A DNA stretch of 64,000 bases from Candidatus Eiseniibacteriota bacterium (GCA_035716005.1 DASTKG010000052.1:6360-70359); one strand, 5' to 3'. Shown: positions 6,109 through 39,860, numbered from the stretch's first letter. Numbers and translations: made by a program. Notes: generated from the sequence alone by a model not told the origin.

Positions 6109-7281
6109 ATGAGTCAATCGAGCCGCGATTCTAGGAAGCGCCCGTCCGCGGGTCAACGCGCGCGGGAGGGAGACGCCGGGCCGGCCGGAGAAGCCACGCC
6201 GCGTCCTTCCGCCGAGCTCGCCTCGAGCGACCCGCTGGCGCGCGGACTCTGGGAGGCGTCGGCGGTGGAGGCCGGGCCGAGGCAACACGAGCGGGATCGC
6301 GAACGTCGTCGCGGGTCGGGCCGCGAACGACGACCCTTCGTCCAGAACCTGATCGGCGTGAGCGCGCGGATGCAGCGCGTCTTCCGCCTCGTCGAGAAGG
6401 TGGCCCCCACCGACAGCCCCGTCCTCATCACCGGCGAGAGCGGAACCGGGAAGGAGATGGTGGCGACCGCGATCCATCTCCTGAGCCGCCGCGCCCACGA
6501 ACCGTTCGTGACCGTGAACTGCGCCGCGATCACCGAGTCGCTCTTCGAGAGCGAGCTCTTCGGGCACGTGAAGGGATCGTTCACCGGGGCGTCCTCCGAC
6601 CGGAGGGGGCTCATGCAGCAGGCCGACGGAGGGACGCTCTTCCTCGACGAAGTGGCGGAGATGGTCCCCGGCGCCCAGGTGAAGCTCCTGCGCGCGCTCC
6701 AGGGCGGGGAGGTGCGCCGCGTCGGAGGGAACGAATCGACCCGCGTCGACGTGAGGGTCATCGCCGCCACGAACATCGACGTTCGAAAGGCGCTGGCGGA
6801 CGGCCGGCTTCGCGAGGATCTCTACTACCGCCTGAGCGTCTTCCACATCGAGTTGCCGCCGCTCCGCGAACGACGGGACGACATTCCGGTGTTGGCGAAC
6901 TTCTTCCGCGAGAGCGCGGCCGCCAAGCTCGGGAAGCGGGTCGAGCGCTTCAGCGAGCGGGCCCAGTACTACCTCATGCACTACGACTATCCCGGGAACG
7001 TGCGGGAGCTCCTGAACGCCGTGGAGCGGGCCGCCGTCCTCGCCGACGGGGCCGAGATATCCCACCTCGATCTCCCCCCGACCTTCCGGGAGGTGCCGAT
7101 CCCGCTCCTTCGAGAAGGGGACGCCTTCCCCTACTCCGAAACGATGCCGCTCTCCGCGCTCGAGAAGGAGCACATCCGCCGGGTCCTCGTTCATCACGCC
7201 GGAAATACGACGAAGGCCGCGAAGAGCCTCGGAATTTCCCGTTCCACGCTCTGGCGAAAGATGAGAGAGTATCGGTTGTAG
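6109..7281 (+). CDS. Sigma54-dependent transcriptional activator (bEBP) lacking an N-terminal regulatory domain (PspF-like architecture)
   Basis: AAA+ sigma54-interaction domain with Walker A (GESGTGKE) and a GSFTGA motif (GAFTGA variant). A C-terminal HTH is present (STLWRKMREY). The first ~75 aa are low-complexity, so the true start may be internal. Confidence 0.85.
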   Translation: MSQSSRDSRKRPSAGQRAREGDAGPAGEATPRPSAELASSDPLARGLWEASAVEAGPRQHERDRERRRGSGRERRPFVQNLIGVSARMQRVFRLVEKVAPTDSPVLITGESGTGKEMVATAIHLLSRRAHEPFVTVNCAAITESLFESELFGHVKGSFTGASSDRRGLMQQADGGTLFLDEVAEMVPGAQVKLLRALQGGEVRRVGGNESTRVDVRVIAATNIDVRKALADGRLREDLYYRLSVFHIELPPLRERRDDIPVLANFFRESAAAKLGKRVERFSERAQYYLMHYDYPGNVRELLNAVERAAVLADGAEISHLDLPPTFREVPIPLLREGDAFPYSETMPLSALEKEHIRRVLVHHAGNTTKAAKSLGISRSTLWRKMREYRL

Positions 7282-7283
7282 TT

Positions 7284-7320
7284 GTTTCATCGTGAAACGG
7301 TAGTCGTTTCATACTGAAAC
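7284..7320. promoter_or_regulatory. Tandem perfect palindromes GTTTCA-N3-TGAAAC x2 (candidate bEBP upstream activating sites)
   Basis: GTTTCAtcgTGAAAC at 7284..7298 and GTTTCAtacTGAAAC at 7306..7320. Their centres are 22 bp apart (two helical turns). They lie ~100 bp upstream of the sigma54 promoter at 7409 and directly after the activator stop codon. Confidence 0.6.
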
Positions 7321-7408
7321 AGTTGACACAGTTGGGTACACACCCCCAAGTCGCCCAGCGGCTCGCTATCTGGCTGTAAAATAATCAGTAATGGTACTTG
7401 TCAACACC

Positions 7409-7423
7409 TGGCACGGACTCTGC
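7409..7423 (+). promoter_or_regulatory. Sigma54 (-24/-12) promoter TGGCACggactcTGC
   Basis: GG and GC elements have the exact consensus spacing (TGGCAC-N7-TGC versus consensus TGGCACG-N4-TTGC). It lies 108 bp upstream of the hsp20 start. Confidence 0.6.
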
Positions 7424-7530
7424 GTTAGGGAATCTGCGAGTGTGCGGCGCGGCCGGGATGGTCGCGCCCGAGTCGGGAGGCAGAAACCCTAACCCAAGGG
7501 CGGCAGGGCCGCCCGCCAGGAGGAAGCACC

Positions 7531-7989
7531 ATGAACCTCGTACGTTGGAGCCCGATGCGACCGATGCAGGACATCCTCTCGTTCGAGAACGAGATCAGCC
7601 GTCTCTTCCAGGATCTGGCCACCCGCGGCAGCCAGCAGGAGGGCGAGGCCCCCTCGGTCTGGGCCCCGCGCGTCGACATCGAAGAGGACAAGGAGAACTA
7701 CTTCGTGAAGGCCGAGCTCCCCGGGATGAAGCTCGAGGACATCAAGATCTCGATCTCGGACAACCAGCTCGTCATCCGCGGCGAGAAGCGGCGCGAAGTG
7801 GAGTCGAAGGACAAGACCTATCATCGGGTGGAGCGCGTCTACGGATCGTTCGAGCGCGCCTTCACGCTGACCAAGGCGGTCGCCGCCGACAAGGTCGAGG
7901 CGATCTACCGCGACGGCGTCCTCTCGGTTCGCGTTCCGAAGGCCGAGGAGGCCAAGGCCCGCGAGATCCAGATCAAGATCGAGAAGTAG
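7531..7989 (+). CDS. Small heat-shock protein, Hsp20/alpha-crystallin family
   Basis: 152 aa. Alpha-crystallin domain is present (VDIEEDKENYFVKAELPGMKLEDIKISISDNQLVIRGEK...GVLSVRVPK). RBS is AGGAGGAA. Confidence 0.9.
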   Translation: MNLVRWSPMRPMQDILSFENEISRLFQDLATRGSQQEGEAPSVWAPRVDIEEDKENYFVKAELPGMKLEDIKISISDNQLVIRGEKRREVESKDKTYHRVERVYGSFERAFTLTKAVAADKVEAIYRDGVLSVRVPKAEEAKAREIQIKIEK

Positions 7990-8097
7990 TCCAGGCTGTA
8001 ACGCAACGGTGGAACGGGGCCCGGCACACGGCCGGCCCCGACAGGAGTCGGATGCGCGGAGGGGCCTCGAGCCCCTCGTCGCGCAACGGAGGGAGTT

Positions 8098-10047
8098 ATG
8101 GGAAAGATCATCGGCATTGACCTTGGCACCACGAACTCGTGCGTGGCCGTCATGGAGGGCGGCGAGCCGGTCGTGATCGCGAACGCCGAGGGAAATCGCA
8201 CGACTCCCTCGATCGTGGCCTTCACGAAGACCGGCGAGCGTCTGGTCGGGCAGGTGGCGAAGCGCCAGTCCGTCACCAACCCCAAGAACACCGTCTACTC
8301 GGTGAAGCGCTTCATGGGCCGGAAGTTCGCGGAAGTCGCCGCCAGCGAAGTGAAGAACGTCCCCTACGTCGTGCGTGACGCGAGCGGGGGAGGCGTGGAG
8401 ATCGTCCTGAGCGACAAGGCGTACAGCCCGCCCGAGATCTCCGCCATGGTGCTCCAGAAGATGAAGCAGACGGCGGAGGACTATCTCGGCGAGAAGGTGA
8501 CCGAGGCGGTCATCACCGTTCCGGCCTACTTCAACGACGCGCAGCGGCAGGCCACGAAGGACGCCGGCCGGATCGCGGGTCTGGAAGTGAAGCGGATCAT
8601 CAACGAGCCGACGGCGGCCGCGCTGGCCTACGGGCTCGACAAGAAGAAGGACGAGAAGATCGCCGTCTACGACCTGGGAGGCGGCACGTACGACATCTCC
8701 GTCCTCGAGCTGGGCGACGGCGTCTTCGAGGTGAAGTCGACCAACGGCGACACGCACCTCGGCGGCGACGACTTCGACAAGCGGATCATCGACTGGCTGG
8801 CCGAGGAGTTCCAGAAGTCGGAGGGGATCGATCTGCGCAAGGACGCCATGGCGCTCCAGCGGCTGAAGGAAGCGGCGGAGAAGGCCAAGATCGAGCTCTC
8901 GACGGTCATGCAGACCGACGTGAACCTCCCCTTCATCACCGCCGACGCGACCGGGCCGAAGCACCTGAACGTCACCCTCTCGCGGGCGAACTACGAGAAG
9001 CTGGTCGACGATCTCGTGCAGCGGACGATCGAGCCGATGAAGAAGGCGCTCGCGGACGCCGGCCTGAAGCCCTCCGAGATCGACGAGGTGATCCTGGTCG
9101 GCGGCGCCACGCGGATGCCGAAGGTCCAGGAGGTGGTGAAGAACTTCTTCGGGAAGGAGCCGCATCGCGGCGTGAATCCCGACGAGGTCGTGGCGATCGG
9201 CGCGGCCATCCAGGGCGGTGTCCTGGGCGGCAGCGTGAAGGACGTGCTCCTGCTCGACGTGACGCCTCTTTCGCTCGGCATCGAGACGCTGGGCGGCGTG
9301 ATGACGAAGCTCATCGAGCGGAACACCACGATCCCGACGAAGAAGAGCGAGACTTTCTCGACGGCGTCGGACAACCAGCCGCAGGTGGAGATCCACGTGC
9401 TGCAGGGCGAGCGTCCGATGGCCATCGACAACAAGACGATCGGCAAGTTCCATCTCGACGGCATTCCGCCGGCCCCGCGCGGCATTCCGCAGATCGAGGT
9501 GTCGTTCGACATCGACGCGAACGGCATCCTCCACGTGCTGGCGCGCGACAAGGCGACCGGAAAGGAGCAGAAGATCCGGATCGAGGCCTCGAGCGGACTT
9601 TCCGAGCAGGAAATCCAGAAGATGGTGAAGGACGCGGAGGCTCACGCCGACGCCGACAAGTCGCGCCGCGAGGAAGTCGAGACGAAGAATCGCGGCGACG
9701 CCCTCGCCTGGGAGACCGAGAAGCAGATGAAGGACCTGGGCGACAAGGTGGATCCCGAGTCGAAGGCCAAGGTCGAGAACGCGCTCCAGACGCTGAAGAA
9801 GGCGCTGGAGAGCGGCGAGACCTCCGGCATCAAGTCGGCGAGCGAGGAGTTGACGAAGACCTGGAGCGAGGTCTCGAGCAAGCTCTACGCGGACGCGGCC
9901 AAGGCCGGCGGCCCGGGTGGTCCGGGTGCCGCGGGCGGTCCCGACATGGGTGGCCCGGGCGCTCCCGGCGCGACCGGTGACGCGGGTCAGCAGGGGAAGA
10001 AGGGCGACGACGGCGCCGTGGACGCGGATTACGAGGTGGTGAAGTAG
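8098..10047 (+). CDS. dnaK: Molecular chaperone DnaK (Hsp70)
   Basis: 649 aa. Canonical Hsp70 signatures are present ([35 protein letters not shown]). RBS is GGAGGGAG. Confidence 0.97.
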
Positions 10048-10187
10048 GGAGCCGTTTCGCGACGGTCTAGACTAGAGGCGCCCTGGCGGGGAAACCTTCC
10101 GGGGCGCCGTCGCATCCGGGTCCCAAATCGCGGCCCGGCTCGTACTCGACGTGAGACGCCATGGACCCGCGAAAGGAGCCCCATATC

Positions 10188-10673
10188 ATGAACGCAGCGA
10201 CCCTACAGAAAGCGACCTTCGCCGCCGGATGCTTCTGGGGCGTGGAGGAGACGTTTCGCAGCACTCCGGGCGTCGTCGACACGGCGGTGGGCTACACCGG
10301 CGGCGCGTCGAGCCGGCCGACCTACGAGCAGGTCTGCTCCGGGCGCACCGGGCACGCGGAGGCGGTCGAGGTGACCTTCGATCCGGCCCTCGTCACCTAC
10401 GAATCGCTGCTTCAGGTCTTCTGGGAGAACCACGACCCGACGACGCTGAATCGCCAGGGGCCGGACGTCGGCGAGCAGTATCGCTCCGCCATCTTCGTCC
10501 ATTCGCCCGAGCAGGAAGCGTCGGCGATCGCCTCGAAGGAAGCGGTCGCGGCGTCGGGGCGATTCGCGCGGCCGATCGTCACGCAGATCGCGCCGGCCGT
10601 CGAGTTCTGGCGCGCCGAGGAGTACCACCAGCGGTATCTCGCCAAGCGCGGCATCCGCTCCTGCCACATCTGA
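10188..10673 (+). CDS. msrA: Peptide methionine sulfoxide reductase MsrA
   Basis: GCFWGVE active-site motif. A MsrA-like fold signature extends throughout. Start is taken at MNAATLQK with RBS AAGGAG; the ORF itself extends to 10161. Confidence 0.9.
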
Positions 10674-10707: not shown

Positions 10708-13179
10708 CTACTGCGACTCCTCGCGGGACGCGCCGATCAGGTGGCGGCGTCCCGCGAACGGCATCTGCACCAGCGCCGCCATCAGCACGACGCCGACGTG
10801 GGCGATCACGTAGCGCGTGAGGAGGTCCGCCCCCGACGAGTAGTGATTCCGGTCGGTGCTGAAGAGGAACTGCATCGCCGAGAAACTGGCGCCGTACTTG
10901 TCGATCTGGTTGGCGCTCCCCAGCGTGAGCGCCATCCATCCGAAGGCGACGCCCCCGGCCGCGAGAACGACGGCCGCCACGAGATTGGCCCGCCGCCGCA
11001 TGACCGCCGCCACGATGGAGGCGCTCGCCCCGAGATTCAGGATCCAGATCGCGAGCCAGAAGCAGGCGAGGAGCGAGCCGCCGCCCGCCATCAGCTCCGT
11101 GAGATTGTCGGTCGACGCGGCCTTCACCACGATGAGATAGGAGAGGCCCAGGATCGGCGCCGCCATGAAGATCCAGCGCGAGAGGGCGCGCCGGTCCCAG
11201 TCCGGATGCGGGCCGACGAGCGCGGCGGCCAGATGCGCGCCGCCCGTGTAGAGCGTGGAGACCGCGGCGAAGAGGCCGAGGAAGCGGAGCATGATCTCGA
11301 GGTCGCCCCACCATCCGAGGACCGGCGAGCCCACGATGTCGTGGATCGCCTCGACCGGCGCGCCGACGCGAATGCCGGTCCAGACGACGACGCCGTGGAC
11401 GAGCACGAAGAGCGGCAGGAAGATCGACCGCCGCCACTCGCCGCGAGCGCACCAGCGCGAGAAGATCATCGGCGGCGCGAAGGCGGCCAGGAGAACGAGA
11501 GGGAAACCGAGCAGCGCCACGTGGCCGCCCCGCATGAAAAGCTCCCGCACGTTGTAGGGGACGGCGGACGACTCGACGGCGAAGAAACCGAAGGCGATCA
11601 GGAGGAAGTAGGCGATGCCGGTGCGCTGGATCGCGAGCTCGGCCCGCCGGGCGCGCTTCGAGCGAAGCCGGAGATCGTCGGCCGTGAGGGGCGCCGGCCC
11701 GATCCACGTGGCCGCCGGCGGGCGCGGCTCGGGGCTCGGTGGGGCCTCCGCGCGGTCCGCGTCCGCGCCGTCGGACCGCGGCTCTCCGGCCGGGGAGGCC
11801 GCCTCGACCCGACGCGCCGCGCGGGCCAGAGCGCGGGCGGCGAGGTAGCCGCCCAGGCCGCCGATCGCGGCCACCACGATATCGGTCGAGTCGGGGACCT
11901 TTCCGGGAAGGAAGACTTGGAGCGCCTCGATACCCGCCGCCACGCCGCCCGCCACGAAGAAGGAAGCCGCGCCCGCGGCCCTCGCCGCCCACGGGGCGCG
12001 ATGCCGCGACGCGCCGAACGCGGCGACGGCGCCGAAGGGCGCGAAGAGGACGAGCTGGAGGAGGAGGTCCGAGACGGCGCGCGCCTCGGTCGCGAGCCAG
12101 TAGGTGCGAAACGGAACCGCGGTCAGGGCGTCGATGCGCGCGCGGAGGGTCGAGACGTCGTAGTGGAAGTGGAACGGATAGCAGAATCCGAAGACCAGGA
12201 CCACGGACCACGCGATGGCGGCGAGCGCCACGCCGACGTAGCGGCGCCGCGGCTCGAGCGGGGTCGCCGTCACGCCGCCCGGCCTCGCCGCCCGAAATCG
12301 AGCCCCGAGCCAAACGCCGGCCGCGGCGCCCGCGGCGGCGCAGAGGATGTCGGTCGAATCGCTCACTCGGCTCTGCACCAGGAGCTGCATCGTCTCGATG
12401 GCCACCGCGAAGAGAACCGTCACGCCCCACGCGGAGAAGCGGCGCCATCCGCGTCCGAGGACCAGGAGCGCGGCGAGAGGGAGCCAGAGAAGGGCCTCGG
12501 AGCCGATCCCGAAGACGGCCGTGACCGGATCGTCGCCGAGCGAGGTGAAGGGGATCGGGCGGATGAGGCCGCGATCCCATTTCCGGTAGAGCGCCGACGC
12601 GCTCAGGGTGAGGTCGGCGGGAAGGATGTTGTAGAAGAAGAGAACGACCGCGTACGGGGTCACCAGCCATCCCGCCACCCCCTGGCGTCCCTCCACGGCG
12701 TCCCAGCGATGGAAGGCGCGCCGCACGACGCCTCCGGCCAGATACCACGCGATCACGCCGGCCCCCGCGCCCCACGCGGCGGCGATGACGTCCCAGAGCT
12801 GAACGTTTCGAGGCGGCGTATAGATCTGCGCGAACTCGATCGCGGCCTGGAAGAGCACGGCCGCCGCCCAGGCCACGACCCCCAGGAGGATGTTCGAGAG
12901 GCGCTTCCATCCCGCGCCGATGGAGCCGGCCCAGAGGAAGGCGAGCGGCATGAAGAGGAGGACGTTCGCCGTGAAGTCGGTTCGGGAGAAGTGGCCCGGC
13001 TTGAACTCGGGGATGTGGCGGTAGACGGCCCAGGCCCGATCCCAGGGAATGGGCGTGAAATCGAGAGGGATCAGGCAGCCGTAGAGGACGAAAAGCGTGT
13101 AGAGCGCCGCCGCGATGCGCAGCGGCGCCGGAATCCACGGTACTTCGTCGGTCGTCCCGGACCTAGATTCAGCGGCCAC
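10708..13179 (-). CDS. Large polytopic membrane protein with three tandem VanZ-like domains plus a C-terminal uncharacterised membrane domain
   Basis: Three repeats of the VanZ signature are present (AIEFAQIYTPPRNVQLWDVIAAAWGAGAG; AIETMQLLVQSRVSDSTDILCAAAGAAAG; IEALQVFLPGKVPDSTDIVVAAIGGLGG). TM helices occur throughout. The 5' part of the ORF (to 13422) is Arg/Gly-rich and not coding-like, so the start is placed at GTG 13179 and remains uncertain. Confidence 0.65.
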   Translation of the reverse strand: MAAESRSGTTDEVPWIPAPLRIAAALYTLFVLYGCLIPLDFTPIPWDRAWAVYRHIPEFKPGHFSRTDFTANVLLFMPLAFLWAGSIGAGWKRLSNILLGVVAWAAAVLFQAAIEFAQIYTPPRNVQLWDVIAAAWGAGAGVIAWYLAGGVVRRAFHRWDAVEGRQGVAGWLVTPYAVVLFFYNILPADLTLSASALYRKWDRGLIRPIPFTSLGDDPVTAVFGIGSEALLWLPLAALLVLGRGWRRFSAWGVTVLFAVAIETMQLLVQSRVSDSTDILCAAAGAAAGVWLGARFRAARPGGVTATPLEPRRRYVGVALAAIAWSVVLVFGFCYPFHFHYDVSTLRARIDALTAVPFRTYWLATEARAVSDLLLQLVLFAPFGAVAAFGASRHRAPWAARAAGAASFFVAGGVAAGIEALQVFLPGKVPDSTDIVVAAIGGLGGYLAARALARAARRVEAASPAGEPRSDGADADRAEAPPSPEPRPPAATWIGPAPLTADDLRLRSKRARRAELAIQRTGIAYFLLIAFGFFAVESSAVPYNVRELFMRGGHVALLGFPLVLLAAFAPPMIFSRWCARGEWRRSIFLPLFVLVHGVVVWTGIRVGAPVEAIHDIVGSPVLGWWGDLEIMLRFLGLFAAVSTLYTGGAHLAAALVGPHPDWDRRALSRWIFMAAPILGLSYLIVVKAASTDNLTELMAGGGSLLACFWLAIWILNLGASASIVAAVMRRRANLVAAVVLAAGGVAFGWMALTLGSANQIDKYGASFSAMQFLFSTDRNHYSSGADLLTRYVIAHVGVVLMAALVQMPFAGRRHLIGASREESQ

Positions 13180-13396
13180 GGGCGGATAGAAGCACGACCG
13201 GCCCCCTTCGCGCCAGCGCGGGGTTTGCCGCCACGGGCCGCTTCCGGAGACCCGATTCGCGCCGTTCCGAGCCCCTCCGCGGCAAACTTTTCCGCTAAGC
13301 AAGCCCGAGAATCGCGCCGATATCCCCATCGTCACGGCAGGCCGCGCTCCGCGGCCGGGAGCCACGGGGGCGTCGCCGTCGGGGGAAGCCAACTCC

Positions 13397-14869
13397 TTGA
13401 ATCTCAACGTCGCTGTCATCATGCCGGCCGGACCGGAGCGGGATGCTCTGGTCGATCACGTCGCCACGCAGAAGTGCGCGGTGCAGGTCGCGGATCGTGT
13501 GGAGGATTTCCTCTCCCGCGGGGGTGAGGAAATGTGCTCGCTGGCGATTCTCGATTTCGGGGATGGATCCCTGGGGTCCGGTCGTTCTTCTTCCTTCGCG
13601 CCCCCCTCCTTCGCGGAGCGGCGCGACGCGGTCCGCCGACTGAAAGAGCGGTGGCCGCGCATGCAGCTCGCCGCGTTCCTCGATCGCTCCAACGCGGCCG
13701 AGGCGGCGGAAATGAACGAGCTGGGGATCCGCAATCTCTTCCTGAAGCCGATCCGCTTCGACGCCGTCGACGGGCTTCTCAAGGCCGCCGGCAAGAGCGC
13801 CGTGCAGCAGGCGCGCGAGCAGCGCGAGTCGTCGCGCGTCCGCGAGGAGTTCCGCTTCGATCGGATCCTCGGCCAGAGTCCGGCCCTCCGCCACGCCATC
13901 GAGCTGGCCCAGAGCGTCTCGCTCTCGAGCGCGACGTCGGTACTCATTCTGGGCGAGAGCGGCGTGGGGAAGGAACTCTTCGCCCGGGCCATTCACGGCG
14001 AGAGCCCGCGGGCCAAGGGGCCGTTCCTCGAGATCAACTGCGCCGCGATTCCGCGCGAGCTCCTGGAATCGGAGCTCTTCGGCCACGAAAGGGGAGCCTT
14101 CACGGACGCCTCGAGCCAGCGGATCGGGCTCTTCGAGGCGGGCGAGGGGGGATCGGTCTTCCTGGACGAAGTCGGCGAGCTGCCGCTCACGCTCCAAGCC
14201 AAGCTTCTCAAGTTCCTCGACATGAAGATCGTGCGGCGCGTCGGAGGCACGCGGGACATCGCGGTCGACGTCCGCATTCTCGCGGCCACGAACCGCGATC
14301 TCTCCGGGGAGGTCCGCCAGGGCCGGTTCCGTGAGGATCTCTTCTACCGTCTGAGCGTCGTGCCGATCACGGTGCCGCCTCTACGCGACCGCGGCGCCGA
14401 CGTCACGCTCCTCGCCGAGTCGTTCTGCGAGCGCGTGGCTCGGAAGCTGGGACGCACGGCGCGACTCTCTCCGGCCGCGGAGCGCGAGCTGATGCGCTAT
14501 CCGTGGCCCGGCAACGTCCGCGAGCTCGGCAACGCCATCGAGCGCGCGGTCCTCCTCGCGAAGAGCGAGGAGATCGGTCCCTCCGAGCTGGCGCTGCCGC
14601 GCGTCGGCGGCGCGGCGGGATCCGAAGCGCCGAACCTGAACGATCTCGGCCTCCGCTTCCCGGCGGACGGCCTCTCGCTCGTGGCGCTCGAGAAGGCGGC
14701 CATCGAGGGCGCGCTCGCCCGGACGGGCGGGAACGTCGTGGAGGCGGCCAAGCTCCTCCACGTCGGCCGCGGAAGCCTCCGCTGCAAAATGCGGCGCCAC
14801 AAGATCGACCGCACCGAGCCTCGTCCCGCGCCGGTTTCCCAGGGCTCGCCGGCCCTCGCCCGCATCTAA
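13397..14869 (+). CDS. Sigma54-dependent Fis-family response-regulator-like activator
   Basis: N-terminal degenerate receiver-like domain (AILDF...FLKP). AAA+ sigma54 domain with GESGVGKE and a GAFTDA motif. C-terminal Fis-type HTH. Start is TTG 13397, with an alternative ATG at 13421. Confidence 0.85.
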   Translation: MNLNVAVIMPAGPERDALVDHVATQKCAVQVADRVEDFLSRGGEEMCSLAILDFGDGSLGSGRSSSFAPPSFAERRDAVRRLKERWPRMQLAAFLDRSNAAEAAEMNELGIRNLFLKPIRFDAVDGLLKAAGKSAVQQAREQRESSRVREEFRFDRILGQSPALRHAIELAQSVSLSSATSVLILGESGVGKELFARAIHGESPRAKGPFLEINCAAIPRELLESELFGHERGAFTDASSQRIGLFEAGEGGSVFLDEVGELPLTLQAKLLKFLDMKIVRRVGGTRDIAVDVRILAATNRDLSGEVRQGRFREDLFYRLSVVPITVPPLRDRGADVTLLAESFCERVARKLGRTARLSPAAERELMRYPWPGNVRELGNAIERAVLLAKSEEIGPSELALPRVGGAAGSEAPNLNDLGLRFPADGLSLVALEKAAIEGALARTGGNVVEAAKLLHVGRGSLRCKMRRHKIDRTEPRPAPVSQGSPALARI

Positions 14870-38208: not shown

Positions 38209-39408
38209 ATGAAGCAACGCGATCCGTCGCGCCTCACCTTCAACACCCTCTGCGTGCACGGCTCCGGCGGCGCCGACCCGCTGACCGGCGCGGTCTCCAC
38301 GCCGATCTACCAAAGCAGCACCTTCGCCTTCAAGAGCGCCGAACAGGGCGCCGCCATCTTCGCCGGCGAGCAGGAAGGCTACTTCTACACGCGCCTCGGG
38401 AACCCGACGACGGCGGCCTTCGAGCGCGAGATGGCGTTCTTGGAGTGCGGCGAGGCCGCCCTCGGGACGGGGAGCGGCATGGCGGCCACCTCCACGGCCG
38501 TGCTCACCCTCGCGCAAAAGGGCGACAACATCATCGCCGCCCACACGCTCTACGGCGGCACGCACAAGCTCTTCCAGGAGCTCCTTCCGCGGCTCGGCAT
38601 CGAGGCGCGCACCGTCGACGCGAACGACCCCGACGCCATCGCGCGCGCGGCGGACGCCAAGACGCGGCTCCTCTTCGTCGAGACCCCCGCGAATCCGACG
38701 CTTTCCATCGTCGATCTCCGCCTCTGCGTGCGCGAATGCCGCCGGCACGGGTTTCCGCTCTTCGTCGACAACACGTTCGCCACGCCCTACTACCAGCGCC
38801 CCCTCGAGCTCGGCGCCGACGTCGTGATCCACAGCGCCACGAAGTACATCGGCGGGCACGGCGACACGGTGGCGGGCGTCATGATCGGGACGAAGGAGTT
38901 CATCACGCGCGCGCGGTTCGAGATGATCCGCGACCTCGGCGGGATCCTGAGCCCCTTCAACGCGTGGCTCCTGCTGCGCGGCCTGAAGACGCTCCCGGTG
39001 CGCATGGAGCGCCACTCCGAGAACGCCATGCAGATCGCCCAGTTCCTCAACTTCCACCCCAAGGTGTCGCGCGTCTGGTACCCGGGGCTCCGGACCCACC
39101 CGCAGCACGAGGTCGCGGCGCGGCAGATGAGCGGCTTCGGAGGGATGCTCGCGTTCGAGTTGAAGGGCGGGCACGACGCGGGCGTCACGCTCCTCGATTC
39201 GGTGGAGCTGATGACGCTGGCGGTGAGCCTCGGCGATTGCGACACCCTCATCGAGCATCCGGCGTCGATGACTCATTCGACCTATTCGGCCGAGGAGCTG
39301 GCGGCCGTGGGAATCACCGGCGGTCTCGTGCGCCTCTCGGTCGGCATCGAGGGAGTCGAGGATCTGATCGCCGATCTGGACCAGGCCCTGGCCAGGATTC
39401 CCGCGTGA
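38209..39408 (+). CDS. Cys/Met-metabolism PLP-dependent enzyme (methionine gamma-lyase / cystathionine gamma-synthase family)
   Basis: PLP-lysine region SATKYIGGHGD. Family-wide conservation is present (STPIYQSSTF, GNPT). Confidence 0.88.
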   Translation: MKQRDPSRLTFNTLCVHGSGGADPLTGAVSTPIYQSSTFAFKSAEQGAAIFAGEQEGYFYTRLGNPTTAAFEREMAFLECGEAALGTGSGMAATSTAVLTLAQKGDNIIAAHTLYGGTHKLFQELLPRLGIEARTVDANDPDAIARAADAKTRLLFVETPANPTLSIVDLRLCVRECRRHGFPLFVDNTFATPYYQRPLELGADVVIHSATKYIGGHGDTVAGVMIGTKEFITRARFEMIRDLGGILSPFNAWLLLRGLKTLPVRMERHSENAMQIAQFLNFHPKVSRVWYPGLRTHPQHEVAARQMSGFGGMLAFELKGGHDAGVTLLDSVELMTLAVSLGDCDTLIEHPASMTHSTYSAEELAAVGITGGLVRLSVGIEGVEDLIADLDQALARIPA

Positions 39409-39860
39409 CCGCGGCCCCGGGCCGCGCGGCCGGGGCGGGCGAACGACCGAGCGCCTCGACCCTCCTCGGCTACTGGCTTCCCGCCGTCGCCTACGTCGGG
39501 CTGATCTTTTCGCTCTCGTCCATCCGGGGAACGGACATTCCGTCCGGCTTCCCCAACATGGACAAACTCGCCCATCTCCTGGAGTATTCGCTGCTCGGCC
39601 TCCTGCTCGGCCGCGCCATCCGCTTCACGATGGCCGGGCGGGGGAGAGTCGCCGCCTCGTTCGCCACCGTCCTGGCCGGCGCTCTGGTCGGCATGGCCGA
39701 CGAGCTCTATCAGCGGGGCGTTCCGGGGCGAAGCAGCGACATCCGGGATTGGATGGTGGACGTCCTGGCCGTGTCGGCCTCGGTCGTCTTCACGCAGTGG
39801 GTCAGCACGCGCTCCCTTCGCGGGCGCGGCGTCGCTTCGACGGGAGAAGAGCCGCGATGA
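39405..39860 (+). CDS. VanZ-family small membrane protein
   Basis: 151 aa with VanZ-like motif (DKLAHLLEYSLLGLLLG ... DELYQRGVPGRSSDIRDWMVDVLAVSAS). GTG overlaps the upstream stop (GTGA) and the hisS start (ATGA). Confidence 0.65.
   Translation: MTAAPGRAAGAGERPSASTLLGYWLPAVAYVGLIFSLSSIRGTDIPSGFPNMDKLAHLLEYSLLGLLLGRAIRFTMAGRGRVAASFATVLAGALVGMADELYQRGVPGRSSDIRDWMVDVLAVSASVVFTQWVSTRSLRGRGVASTGEEPR

Follow-up and report, generated by a model that had tools for sequence, protein, structure and literature searches.

The 64,000-nucleotide stretch of DNA from a Candidatus Eiseniibacteriota bacterium considered here (GCA_035716005.1 DASTKG010000052.1:6360-70359, in the following "the window") carries on its minus strand, at 10708-13179, a gene for an 823-residue membrane protein. 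In this protein, three VanZ units are followed by a linker and by a domain of eight predicted transmembrane (TM) helices, here called CT, which matched none of the described families searched. The gene itself is already in the databases, and its product is 100% identical to the NCBI entry 'VanZ family protein [Candidatus Eisenbacteria bacterium]' from a metagenome-assembled genome (MAG). VanZ membership was known and the family is common; what is new is the partner domain CT. The parts of the gene are arranged as follows.

10708-13179, minus strand: whole gene (three VanZ units, linker and CT); open reading frame (ORF) of 823 amino acids plus stop codon, coordinates verified by translation
13180-13422, minus strand: 5' part of the maximal ORF, overlapping the intergenic region towards the divergent regulator gene and the 5' end of that gene; probably untranslated, judging from sequence comparison
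12706-13131, minus strand: VanZ/Lipocone unit 1, residues 17-158, four TM helices; Pfam VanZ 45.6 bits alone
12280-12702, minus strand: VanZ/Lipocone unit 2, residues 160-300, four TM helices; Pfam VanZ 46.3 bits alone
11806-12267, minus strand: VanZ/Lipocone unit 3, residues 305-458, four TM helices; Pfam VanZ 46.8 bits alone
11668-11805, minus strand: linker, residues 459-504, rich in Pro, Ala, Asp and Arg, predicted to be cytoplasmic and disordered
10744-11667, minus strand: CT domain, residues 505-812, eight predicted TM helices in two four-helix halves (11212-11667 and 10744-11211)

Three VanZ units, a linker and the CT domain

The original prediction, made from the window sequence, had proposed three VanZ-like units in one polypeptide, together with a search of each third against Pfam VanZ (PF04892, 'VanZ-LLP1'). 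This search supports the proposal. In the whole protein, the profile matches three stretches (117.5 bits, E 7.6e-34), and each third scanned alone exceeds the gathering cutoff of 30.1 bits (45.6, 46.3 and 46.8 bits). Hydropathy segments and AlphaFold2 (AF2) helices place four TM helices in every unit, and profile comparison shows the three to be homologous (hhalign probability 97.7-98.8%, E 1e-12 to 1e-16). With unit-specific hidden Markov models (HMMs), the first, second and third units (U1, U2, U3) of distant homologs score best with the matching model, down to about 26% identity. As judged from these profiles, the triplication is ancient, and each unit is orthologous to the like-numbered unit across the family.

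Conservation was assessed in 66 full-length members that share 26-76% identity with the window protein. Across this range, the polar motifs of all four modules are under strong purifying conservation. In unit 1, R66, D68 and N72 (helix 2), E115-x-x-Q118 (helix 3), R124, D130 (helix 4), G137 and G141 are conserved at 97-100%. The residues conserved at 88-100% comprise R66, D68, N72, E115, Q118, R124 and D130 of unit 1, D189, W232, E262, Q265, R271, D274, T276 and D277 of unit 2, and P335, E365, E418, Q421, K427, D430 and D433 of unit 3. Unit 2 is further characterised by D189-L-T, K200-W and P210, by the motifs E262-x-x-Q265 and D274-x-T276-D277, and by Glu228 at the helix-2 position. Unit 3 additionally conserves P356 and has its polar residues arranged as E418-x-x-Q421 and D430-x-x-D433; its helix-2 position varies between Gln, Lys and Asn. 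A 'DSTDI...AAxGxxxG' ending had been expected to close every unit. It is exact in unit 2 (SDSTDILCAAAGAAAG) and in unit 3 (PDSTDIVVAAIGGLGG), and the expectation fails for unit 1 (QLWDVIAAAWGAGAG), which keeps only the second Asp of the 'DSTDI' signature.

The CT domain has a length of about 310 residues and contains several blocks of conserved residues: P541-Y-N-x-R-E-L, E610-x3-D614-x2-G617-x-P, E628-x3-R632, T690-D-N-L-x-E-L-M, K761-Y-x3-F-S-A-x-Q-F-L-x-S-x-D-R777 and R789. In 162 CT sequences, these motifs are 80-100% conserved and can be summarised as the signature PYNxREL … ExxxDxxGxPxLxW … ExxxRxxxL … VxxAxTDNLxELM … KYxxxFSAxQFLLSxDR … R. The two halves are alike (hhalign 75.9%, E 2e-5), with PYNVRELF paired to TDNLTELM. 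Neither the window protein nor any of 39 family members scanned individually has a Pfam match in CT, and there is no NCBIfam match to CT either. The CT profile had no match among the sequences of the PDB, and neither had the profile of the triple VanZ block; no structural similarity to any solved transporter was detected. Stand-alone CT proteins are labelled 'hypothetical protein'. The possibility that CT consists of two further degenerate VanZ units was considered and rejected, as the hhalign probability against each unit is below 1%. In terms of sequence, CT is an undescribed eight-helix domain built of two four-helix halves, in agreement with the earlier suggestion of a further polytopic domain outside the listed families.

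Hydropathy and AF2 models together predict about 20 TM helices, 12 in the VanZ block and 8 in CT. An orientation with the N-terminus inside is favoured by the density of Lys and Arg residues, which is 0.20 in the inside loops versus 0.09 in the outside loops. It places all conserved motifs, those of CT as well as those of the VanZ units, on the outside, and the conserved polar motifs are therefore predicted to face the periplasm. The full-length AF2 model has a predicted local distance difference test (pLDDT) score of 69.7, and values below 50 are found in the linker (residues 462-495). The linker varies in length in the alignment, and its mean top-residue frequency is 0.10, versus 0.42-0.53 in the domains.

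The maximal open frame on the minus strand spans 10708-13422 (904 codons), and these were the coordinates originally given for the gene. The annotated start is the GTG at 13179, which yields the 823-residue product. A start at the beginning of the 904-codon frame was rejected, since the 81-codon extension is not conserved as coding sequence. In a homologous locus (L001, protein 73% identical), an in-frame stop is present 24 codons upstream of the start, gene callers place the starts of all homologs near the equivalent of 13179, and already residues 1-16 have a mean conservation of only 0.15 across the family. Long spurious overlapping frames are explained by the G+C content of the window of about 70%. 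A split of the ORF into separate genes, which had been named as a possible objection, is not seen here: the frame is uninterrupted, and the protein aligns end to end with 15 full-length homologs.

A widespread family with coupled modules

The fused architecture had been considered unusual, and this view has to be abandoned. A search of 1.84 billion representative proteins with the CT profile retrieved 734 clusters with E<=1e-3, of which 500 reach E<=1e-30. For 171 proteins (the best 150 and earlier hits), architectures were assigned with HMMs built from each unit. The order U1-U2-U3-CT, to which the family HMMs also assign the window protein, was found in 70 of the 171. Another 20 have the arrangement U1-…-U3-CT, many of them with a length of about 1280 residues and Wzy_C in between, and 5 have the swapped order CT-U1-U2-U3. 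In 57 proteins, CT occurs without detected VanZ units. Pfam scans of selected long proteins from this last group identified Wzy_C-CT, CT-Acyl_transf_3 and CT-VanZ-heparinase II/III-like lyase fusions. A word-indexed homolog search with the profile of the triple VanZ block added only stand-alone forms of about 450 residues, and no new architectures.

The association with Wzy_C (PF04932), known from O-antigen ligase/polymerase-like proteins such as WaaL, takes two forms: relatives such as P0021, P0038 and P0085 either carry Wzy_C as an insertion that separates CT from the VanZ block, or have it joined directly to CT. Wzy_C is confined to the longer relatives, and the window protein has no match to it at E<=10. 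Like the window protein, Wzy_C/WaaL proteins are polytopic and have conserved residues on the periplasmic face (predicted in our case); they act on glycans linked to undecaprenyl diphosphate (Und-PP).

A scan with one genome per species identified a CT relative in 250 genomes. The carriers include Eisenbacteria, Nitrosospira, Nitrosovibrio, Methylomonas, Sulfuriferula, Nitrotoga and Thiobacillus, as well as Nitrospira, Desulfobacterota and Singulisphaera acidiphila. Eighty genome loci were examined in detail. Among these, 33 have the order U1-U2-U3-CT, and another 21 the order U1-(degenerate U2 or Wzy_C)-U3-CT. The modules are fused in about 64 loci; in about 12, they are encoded by two neighbouring genes, whose order and orientation vary; the remaining 4 are cut or undetermined. 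In 76 of the 80 loci, the ORF that encodes CT, or one next to it, also encodes VanZ units. Both stand-alone CT genes for which the contig was looked up are located directly downstream of a triple VanZ gene. In an Eisenbacteria-like locus with the synteny of the window (L010), the triple VanZ block and CT are separate genes with a 4-nucleotide GTGA overlap. Conversely, one stand-alone triple VanZ gene (L095) has no CT within 10 kb. CT almost always accompanies VanZ or Wzy_C, and the reverse is not always the case. No clean split between the VanZ units was seen among the loci; units are in separate ORFs in L016, L020 and L052, which were not checked for frameshifts or assembly errors.

As either module may come first, both in the fused proteins and where the two are encoded by adjacent genes, they appear to work together in the Rosetta-stone sense. 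The predicted 12 and 8 helices of the blocks would also explain why both domain orders are viable. The split versions, including the one in L010 with the synteny of the window, could raise the suspicion that the window gene joins separate VanZ and CT genes through an assembly or frameshift artefact. This explanation is so improbable as to be almost negligible. The fusion is present in dozens of independent genomes and metagenomes, including the complete genomes of Methylomonas sp. TEB, Sulfuriferula sp. GW1 and Singulisphaera acidiphila, and the closest homologs (62-73% identity) are colinear with the window protein across the VanZ-CT junction.

A subfamily of about 690 residues in Nitrosospira (for example L030, 2828-5002, from Nitrosospira sp. 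NpAV) keeps units 1 and 3 and CT, and has a degenerate middle unit that lacks the motifs. Unit 1 of this subfamily has a more canonical VanZ-1 helix 4 (SDVLWN). The sequences suggest that unit 2 may be dispensable for the core function in some lineages.

Proposed function and alternatives

For 30 years, VanZ was an orphan 'resistance' protein. In 2025-2026, VanZ, Llp1 and YfiM were shown to be pyrophosphatases that clear lipid-linked oligosaccharides (J Cell Biol 224:e202501239; bioRxiv 10.64898/2026.09.16.752124), the reaction being a Ca2+-dependent cleavage of polyprenyl-PP-oligosaccharide (Li et al. 2025; J Cell Biol 224:e202501239). The Lipocone survey (Burroughs, Nicastro, Aravind; eLife 2025; PMC12419801) describes VanZ as a four-helix Lipocone that is predicted to hold a lipid tail and to act on phosphate-linked head groups in the outer leaflet, and links VanZ-1 to exopolysaccharide and WaaL-type genes.

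Because VanZ, Llp1 and YfiM are pyrophosphatases, we favour, with moderate confidence, a role of the window protein in the metabolism of surface polysaccharides or exopolysaccharides: located in the inner membrane, it would face the periplasm and, as an enzyme or a binding assembly, handle glycans linked to polyprenyl (di)phosphate, or related lipid head groups. The VanZ block would act on the phosphate linkage, and CT would be an obligate co-module. Each VanZ module, taken as a Lipocone of the VanZ-1 type, would form a cone that holds a lipid tail, with a polar pocket (ExxQ, Arg/Lys and the helix-4 Asp) that opens to the outer leaflet, and on that face CT would present a second group of acidic, basic and Tyr/Asn residues, which is equally well conserved. 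In this view, the VanZ block would catalyse cleavage or transfer where a lipid-linked oligo- or polysaccharide has its phosphate linkage, in order to recycle the carrier, to control quality or to release the glycan. CT may bind, position or further process the glycan or a lipid partner, so that the VanZ block and CT would work as one unit. Architecture, homology of the units, conservation, coupling of the modules and fusion partners of polysaccharide type are observed here; topology, substrate and chemistry are inferred.

The involvement of surface polysaccharides is suggested by the fusions to Wzy_C, Acyl_transf_3 and a heparinase-like lyase, and by the neighbours of relatives in an XrtA locus. 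In this locus (L093, 1-10531, on a 51.6 kb farmland metagenome contig from ENA), TIGR03018 (XrtA-associated tyrosine autokinase), TIGR03016, TIGR03015, wecB and TIGR03006 (XrtA system polysaccharide deacetylase) all score above cutoff. The XrtA/PEP-CTERM locus ends with a CT-Acyl_transf_3 gene (7001-9133) and a convergent triple VanZ gene (9140-10531). In another locus (L094), a CT-VanZ-lyase fusion is encoded beside a GDSL esterase, and a Polysacc_synt (Wzx-like) gene follows about 4.5 kb downstream. The stand-alone triple VanZ gene of L095 belongs to a cluster with DegT, a hexapeptide acyltransferase, a GT2 (Glycos_transf_2) glycosyltransferase, LPG_synthase_TM, a PMT_2-family (GT-C-type) glycosyltransferase, a methyltransferase and a Pel9A-like beta-helix protein. 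A literature search found no paper linking VanZ with exosortase.

Beta-helix proteins also occur elsewhere in the family. In 22 mainly betaproteobacterial loci, a gene for a secreted right-handed beta-helix protein adjoins the family gene, nearly always upstream and on the same strand; one exception is a gammaproteobacterial MAG, in which it is located downstream on the opposite strand. These proteins have about 450 residues, and their matches to the Pect-lyase and Beta_helix Pfam families are below cutoff (for example in L030, L033, L036, L038-L040, L042-L044 and L057). The Pel9A-like gene of L095 (12366-13727), two genes downstream of the triple VanZ gene, encodes a protein that is weakly similar to the group from the 22 loci (27% over 141 residues, E 3e-4). 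A DHH/DHHA1-like protein of about 320 residues, with weak Pfam matches, is a same-strand neighbour in 13 loci. Its gene is upstream with a gap of 0-16 nucleotides in Methylomonas and relatives (L045, L052-L055, L058, L065, L068), and downstream in other lineages (L029, L056, L079, L084). Clustering of the neighbours in the 80 loci did not yield a conserved operon partner, as only lineage-restricted groups (beta-helix, DHH-like, GNAT, FkbH and GT2) were obtained.

The residues of the VanZ units can be compared with the catalytic set of a characterised VanZ, which consists of H87, E128, R137, D143 and D147 (bioRxiv 10.64898/2026.09.16.752124). All three units have the helix-3 Glu (in ExxQ), the Arg/Lys and the canonical helix-4 Asp. 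In the alignment, none of the three units has the full set of VanZ, Llp1 and YfiM. Several observations weigh against the role that we propose. In place of the helix-2 His, units 1, 2 and 3 have N72, E228 and Q375, and in place of the second helix-4 Asp (+4) they have A134, A281 and A437. As a consequence of these replacements, pyrophosphatase chemistry is not assured. Moreover, other bacterial 'Type 1/2' VanZ homologs had no activity when tested on the eukaryotic substrate. The family has no universal gene partner, and the evidence from exopolysaccharide loci comes from a handful of cases. Finally, the window gene itself is not part of a polysaccharide operon, and is instead located between msrA/dnaK and a regulator gene.

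With E. faecium VanZ and yeast Llp1 (PF04892), the window protein shares, in each unit, the core of four TM helices, the Glu of helix 3 (ExxQ), an Arg/Lys that precedes helix 4 and the canonical Asp of helix 4. It differs from them by having three units per chain and an additional 310-residue domain, and by the replacement of the His and the Asp at +4. E. coli YfiM (DUF2279) belongs to the same superfamily, and the role proposed for it, in lipid-carrier homeostasis in the Gram-negative envelope, is a further point in common. In contrast to the window protein, YfiM is a small single domain with three TM helices and an intact His/Glu/Asp/Asp site, and there is no sequence-level match between the two.

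For VanZ-1, the Lipocone survey gives as motifs an Asn in helix 2, ExxQ in helix 3 and DxDDxxxN in helix 4, and lists an Asp located three positions before the canonical one as a trait of VanZ-1 and Skillet (PMC12419801). Among the three units, unit 1 alone has the helix-2 Asn, all have ExxQ, and units 2 and 3 have the upstream Asp. Helix 4 matches the motif as described in the text only partially, its sequence being QxxDxxxA in unit 1 and DxxDxxxA in the other two units. The association with WaaL/Wzy-like and exopolysaccharide genes is also shared, and tandem duplication has been described, namely of VanZ-1 with inactive VanZ-i duplicates in a betaproteobacterial operon with ferredoxin, lipase and transpeptidase genes (PMC12419801). 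In these duplicates the second copy is inactive, whereas the window protein has three copies, all with conserved polar pockets. The survey mentions VanZ fusions to 'discrete TM modules'; a non-exhaustive keyword search of text and supplements found neither a triplicated VanZ nor an eight-helix partner (PMC12419801).

The absence from the VanZ units of the two residues that are essential for pyrophosphatase activity is also compatible with a translocase. The assembly of 12 and 8 helices would then move undecaprenyl phosphate (Und-P), an Und-PP-glycan or a related lipid, with the VanZ cones and the twofold CT as the conduit. The protein is large and polytopic, the parallel internal repeat of four plus four helices in CT is of a kind found in many transporters, and LPG_synthase_TM-family and Wzx-like Polysacc_synt genes are located near relatives. 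However, the conserved polar residues are predicted at helix ends and loops on one face, and not in the middle of the membrane. Since there is furthermore no structural similarity to solved transporters and no energy-coupling domain, we regard a translocase as unlikely.

To our knowledge, the terminal transferases of several XrtA/PEP-CTERM-type or Wzy-dependent pathways are still unidentified. In a more speculative version of an enzymatic role, the triple Lipocone with CT would be an unrecognised envelope enzyme. With a new catalytic fold, CT would act as a glycan-phosphate transferase or ligase whose periplasmic site is formed by PYN/TDN-ExxxR/KY, and the cones would hold polyprenyl donor, acceptor or product lipids. 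The reaction could be a terminal step of exopolysaccharide assembly in systems of the XrtA/PEP-CTERM type or others that depend on Wzy, for example one that transfers the polymer from Und-PP or releases it. We consider this version improbable.

A role in resistance to glycopeptides (teicoplanin, vancomycin) is suggested by database labels. VanZ was discovered in Tn1546, JGI labels homologs 'glycopeptide antibiotics resistance protein', and there are weak matches to NCBIfam vanZ-F and vanZ-A. The vanZ-F score of 28.6 is nevertheless far from the cutoff of 375, and the label is a name transfer from the Pfam family. No van-type genes are present in the syntenic flanks of about ±10 kb that were read in L001 and L004, which contain msrA, dnaK, hsp20, a sigma54 activator, an ECF sigma factor and GT9; no screen covered the remainder of the 64-kb window. 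The carriers are environmental, mostly Gram-negative lineages, and in Gram-negatives, glycopeptides generally fail to reach lipid II. A resistance determinant is thus very unlikely.

Genomic neighbourhood and implications

Two other features of the window are relevant to the VanZ gene.

13397-14869, plus strand: sigma54-dependent activator (Pfam Sigma54_activat, AAA_lid_14 and HTH_8), divergent neighbour of the VanZ gene
39405-39860, plus strand: free-standing single VanZ gene, 151 amino acids; Pfam VanZ 35.8 bits

The VanZ gene is convergent with msrA (10161-10673) and dnaK. Beyond the regulator, the window encodes an extracytoplasmic function (ECF) sigma factor, a zf-HC2 anti-sigma factor and a GT9 glycosyltransferase. 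The divergent neighbour had been described as a sigma54 response regulator. The activator with its HTH_8 domain is confirmed, and the term 'response regulator' is not, since residues 1-155 have no Response_reg match at E<=1. The sole match of this region is a weak one to AmiR_N (pseudo-receiver, E 0.043). By eye, receiver-like 'AILDF' and 'FLKP' motifs can be recognised in the protein sequence encoded there (13397-13861, plus strand). The N-terminus may therefore be a divergent receiver or a pseudo-receiver.

The gene order of the window is kept in close Eisenbacteria relatives (L001-L003). A TauE gene is inserted between the regulator and the VanZ gene in L010, and msrA and a hybrid kinase in L004, while distant homologs adjoin yajC-secDF or a glycine-cleavage operon. 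No sigma54 promoter was recognised between the two divergent genes, as 13180-13396 contains no -24/-12 element at up to 2 mismatches; window-wide, the number of -24/-12 matches equals the chance expectation. As the order is broken in L004 and L010 and no promoter match was found, the link reflects local synteny rather than a conserved pairing, and the regulator is probably functionally untied to the VanZ gene.

These observations bear on the possibility that the protein is a non-catalytic sensor or scaffold. In this case, the pockets of the VanZ units, being degenerate, would serve to bind a lipid intermediate and to signal the envelope status, for example to the sigma54 activator or to the ECF sigma/anti-sigma pair. 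The gene is divergent from an activator without recognisable receiver, the ECF sigma factor and zf-HC2 anti-sigma factor are encoded just beyond, and the canonical catalytic set is incomplete. VanZ-1 is also described in sensor positions of signalling systems (PMC12419801). Nevertheless, the synteny with the regulator is limited to close relatives, and the intergenic region has no sigma54 promoter. Apart from the non-conserved linker, there is no cytoplasmic part that could serve as a signalling domain, and the fusion partners elsewhere are enzymes (Wzy_C, acyltransferase, lyase). A sensor therefore appears quite unlikely to us.

Where the regulator gene begins, the DNA is itself well conserved. 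The region 13222-13479, which also includes the distal part of the divergent intergenic region, is 93% identical over 201 nucleotides to L001 (9750-9946), compared with 73% identity of the VanZ proteins. This indicates that the N-terminal coding sequence of the regulator, its promoter, or both are strongly constrained. A second sigma54 activator ORF (6109-7281), with only a short N-terminal region before the AAA+ domain, ends just upstream of a sigma54 -24/-12-like sequence, CTGGCACGGACTCTGCG (7408-7424, plus strand), which is one mismatch from TGGCAC-N5-TTGC and is located about 108 nucleotides upstream of hsp20. The hsp20 gene (7531-7989) is followed by dnaK (8098-10047). The trio of activator, hsp20 and dnaK is kept in L001 and L004, and L010 has hsp20-dnaK without the activator. 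This arrangement suggests a sigma54-dependent heat-shock operon in Eisenbacteria; it is the position of the match that points there, the number of such matches being at chance level.

The free-standing VanZ gene at 39405 is confirmed as originally proposed by its Pfam score. Its product has the full His/Glu/Arg/Asp/Asp set (DKLAH, DELYQ, RSSDIRDWMVD). The GTG start overlaps by 4 nucleotides with the stop of an upstream ORF (38209-39408), which resembles a PLP-dependent enzyme of Cys/Met metabolism (putative).

The locus points to a large unstudied branch of the superfamily, in which three differentiated VanZ modules are locked to a domain of eight predicted TM helices. CT is highly conserved in hundreds of environmental lineages, which include cultured nitrifiers and methanotrophs. 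For the annotation of such proteins, the findings advise caution against the automated label 'glycopeptide antibiotics resistance protein'. The pattern of fusions, splits and swaps, together with the associations with Wzy_C, acyltransferase, lyase and XrtA, leads to a testable hypothesis on the handling of lipid carriers in exopolysaccharide production, the process by which nitrifying and methane-oxidising communities come to form biofilms and flocs.

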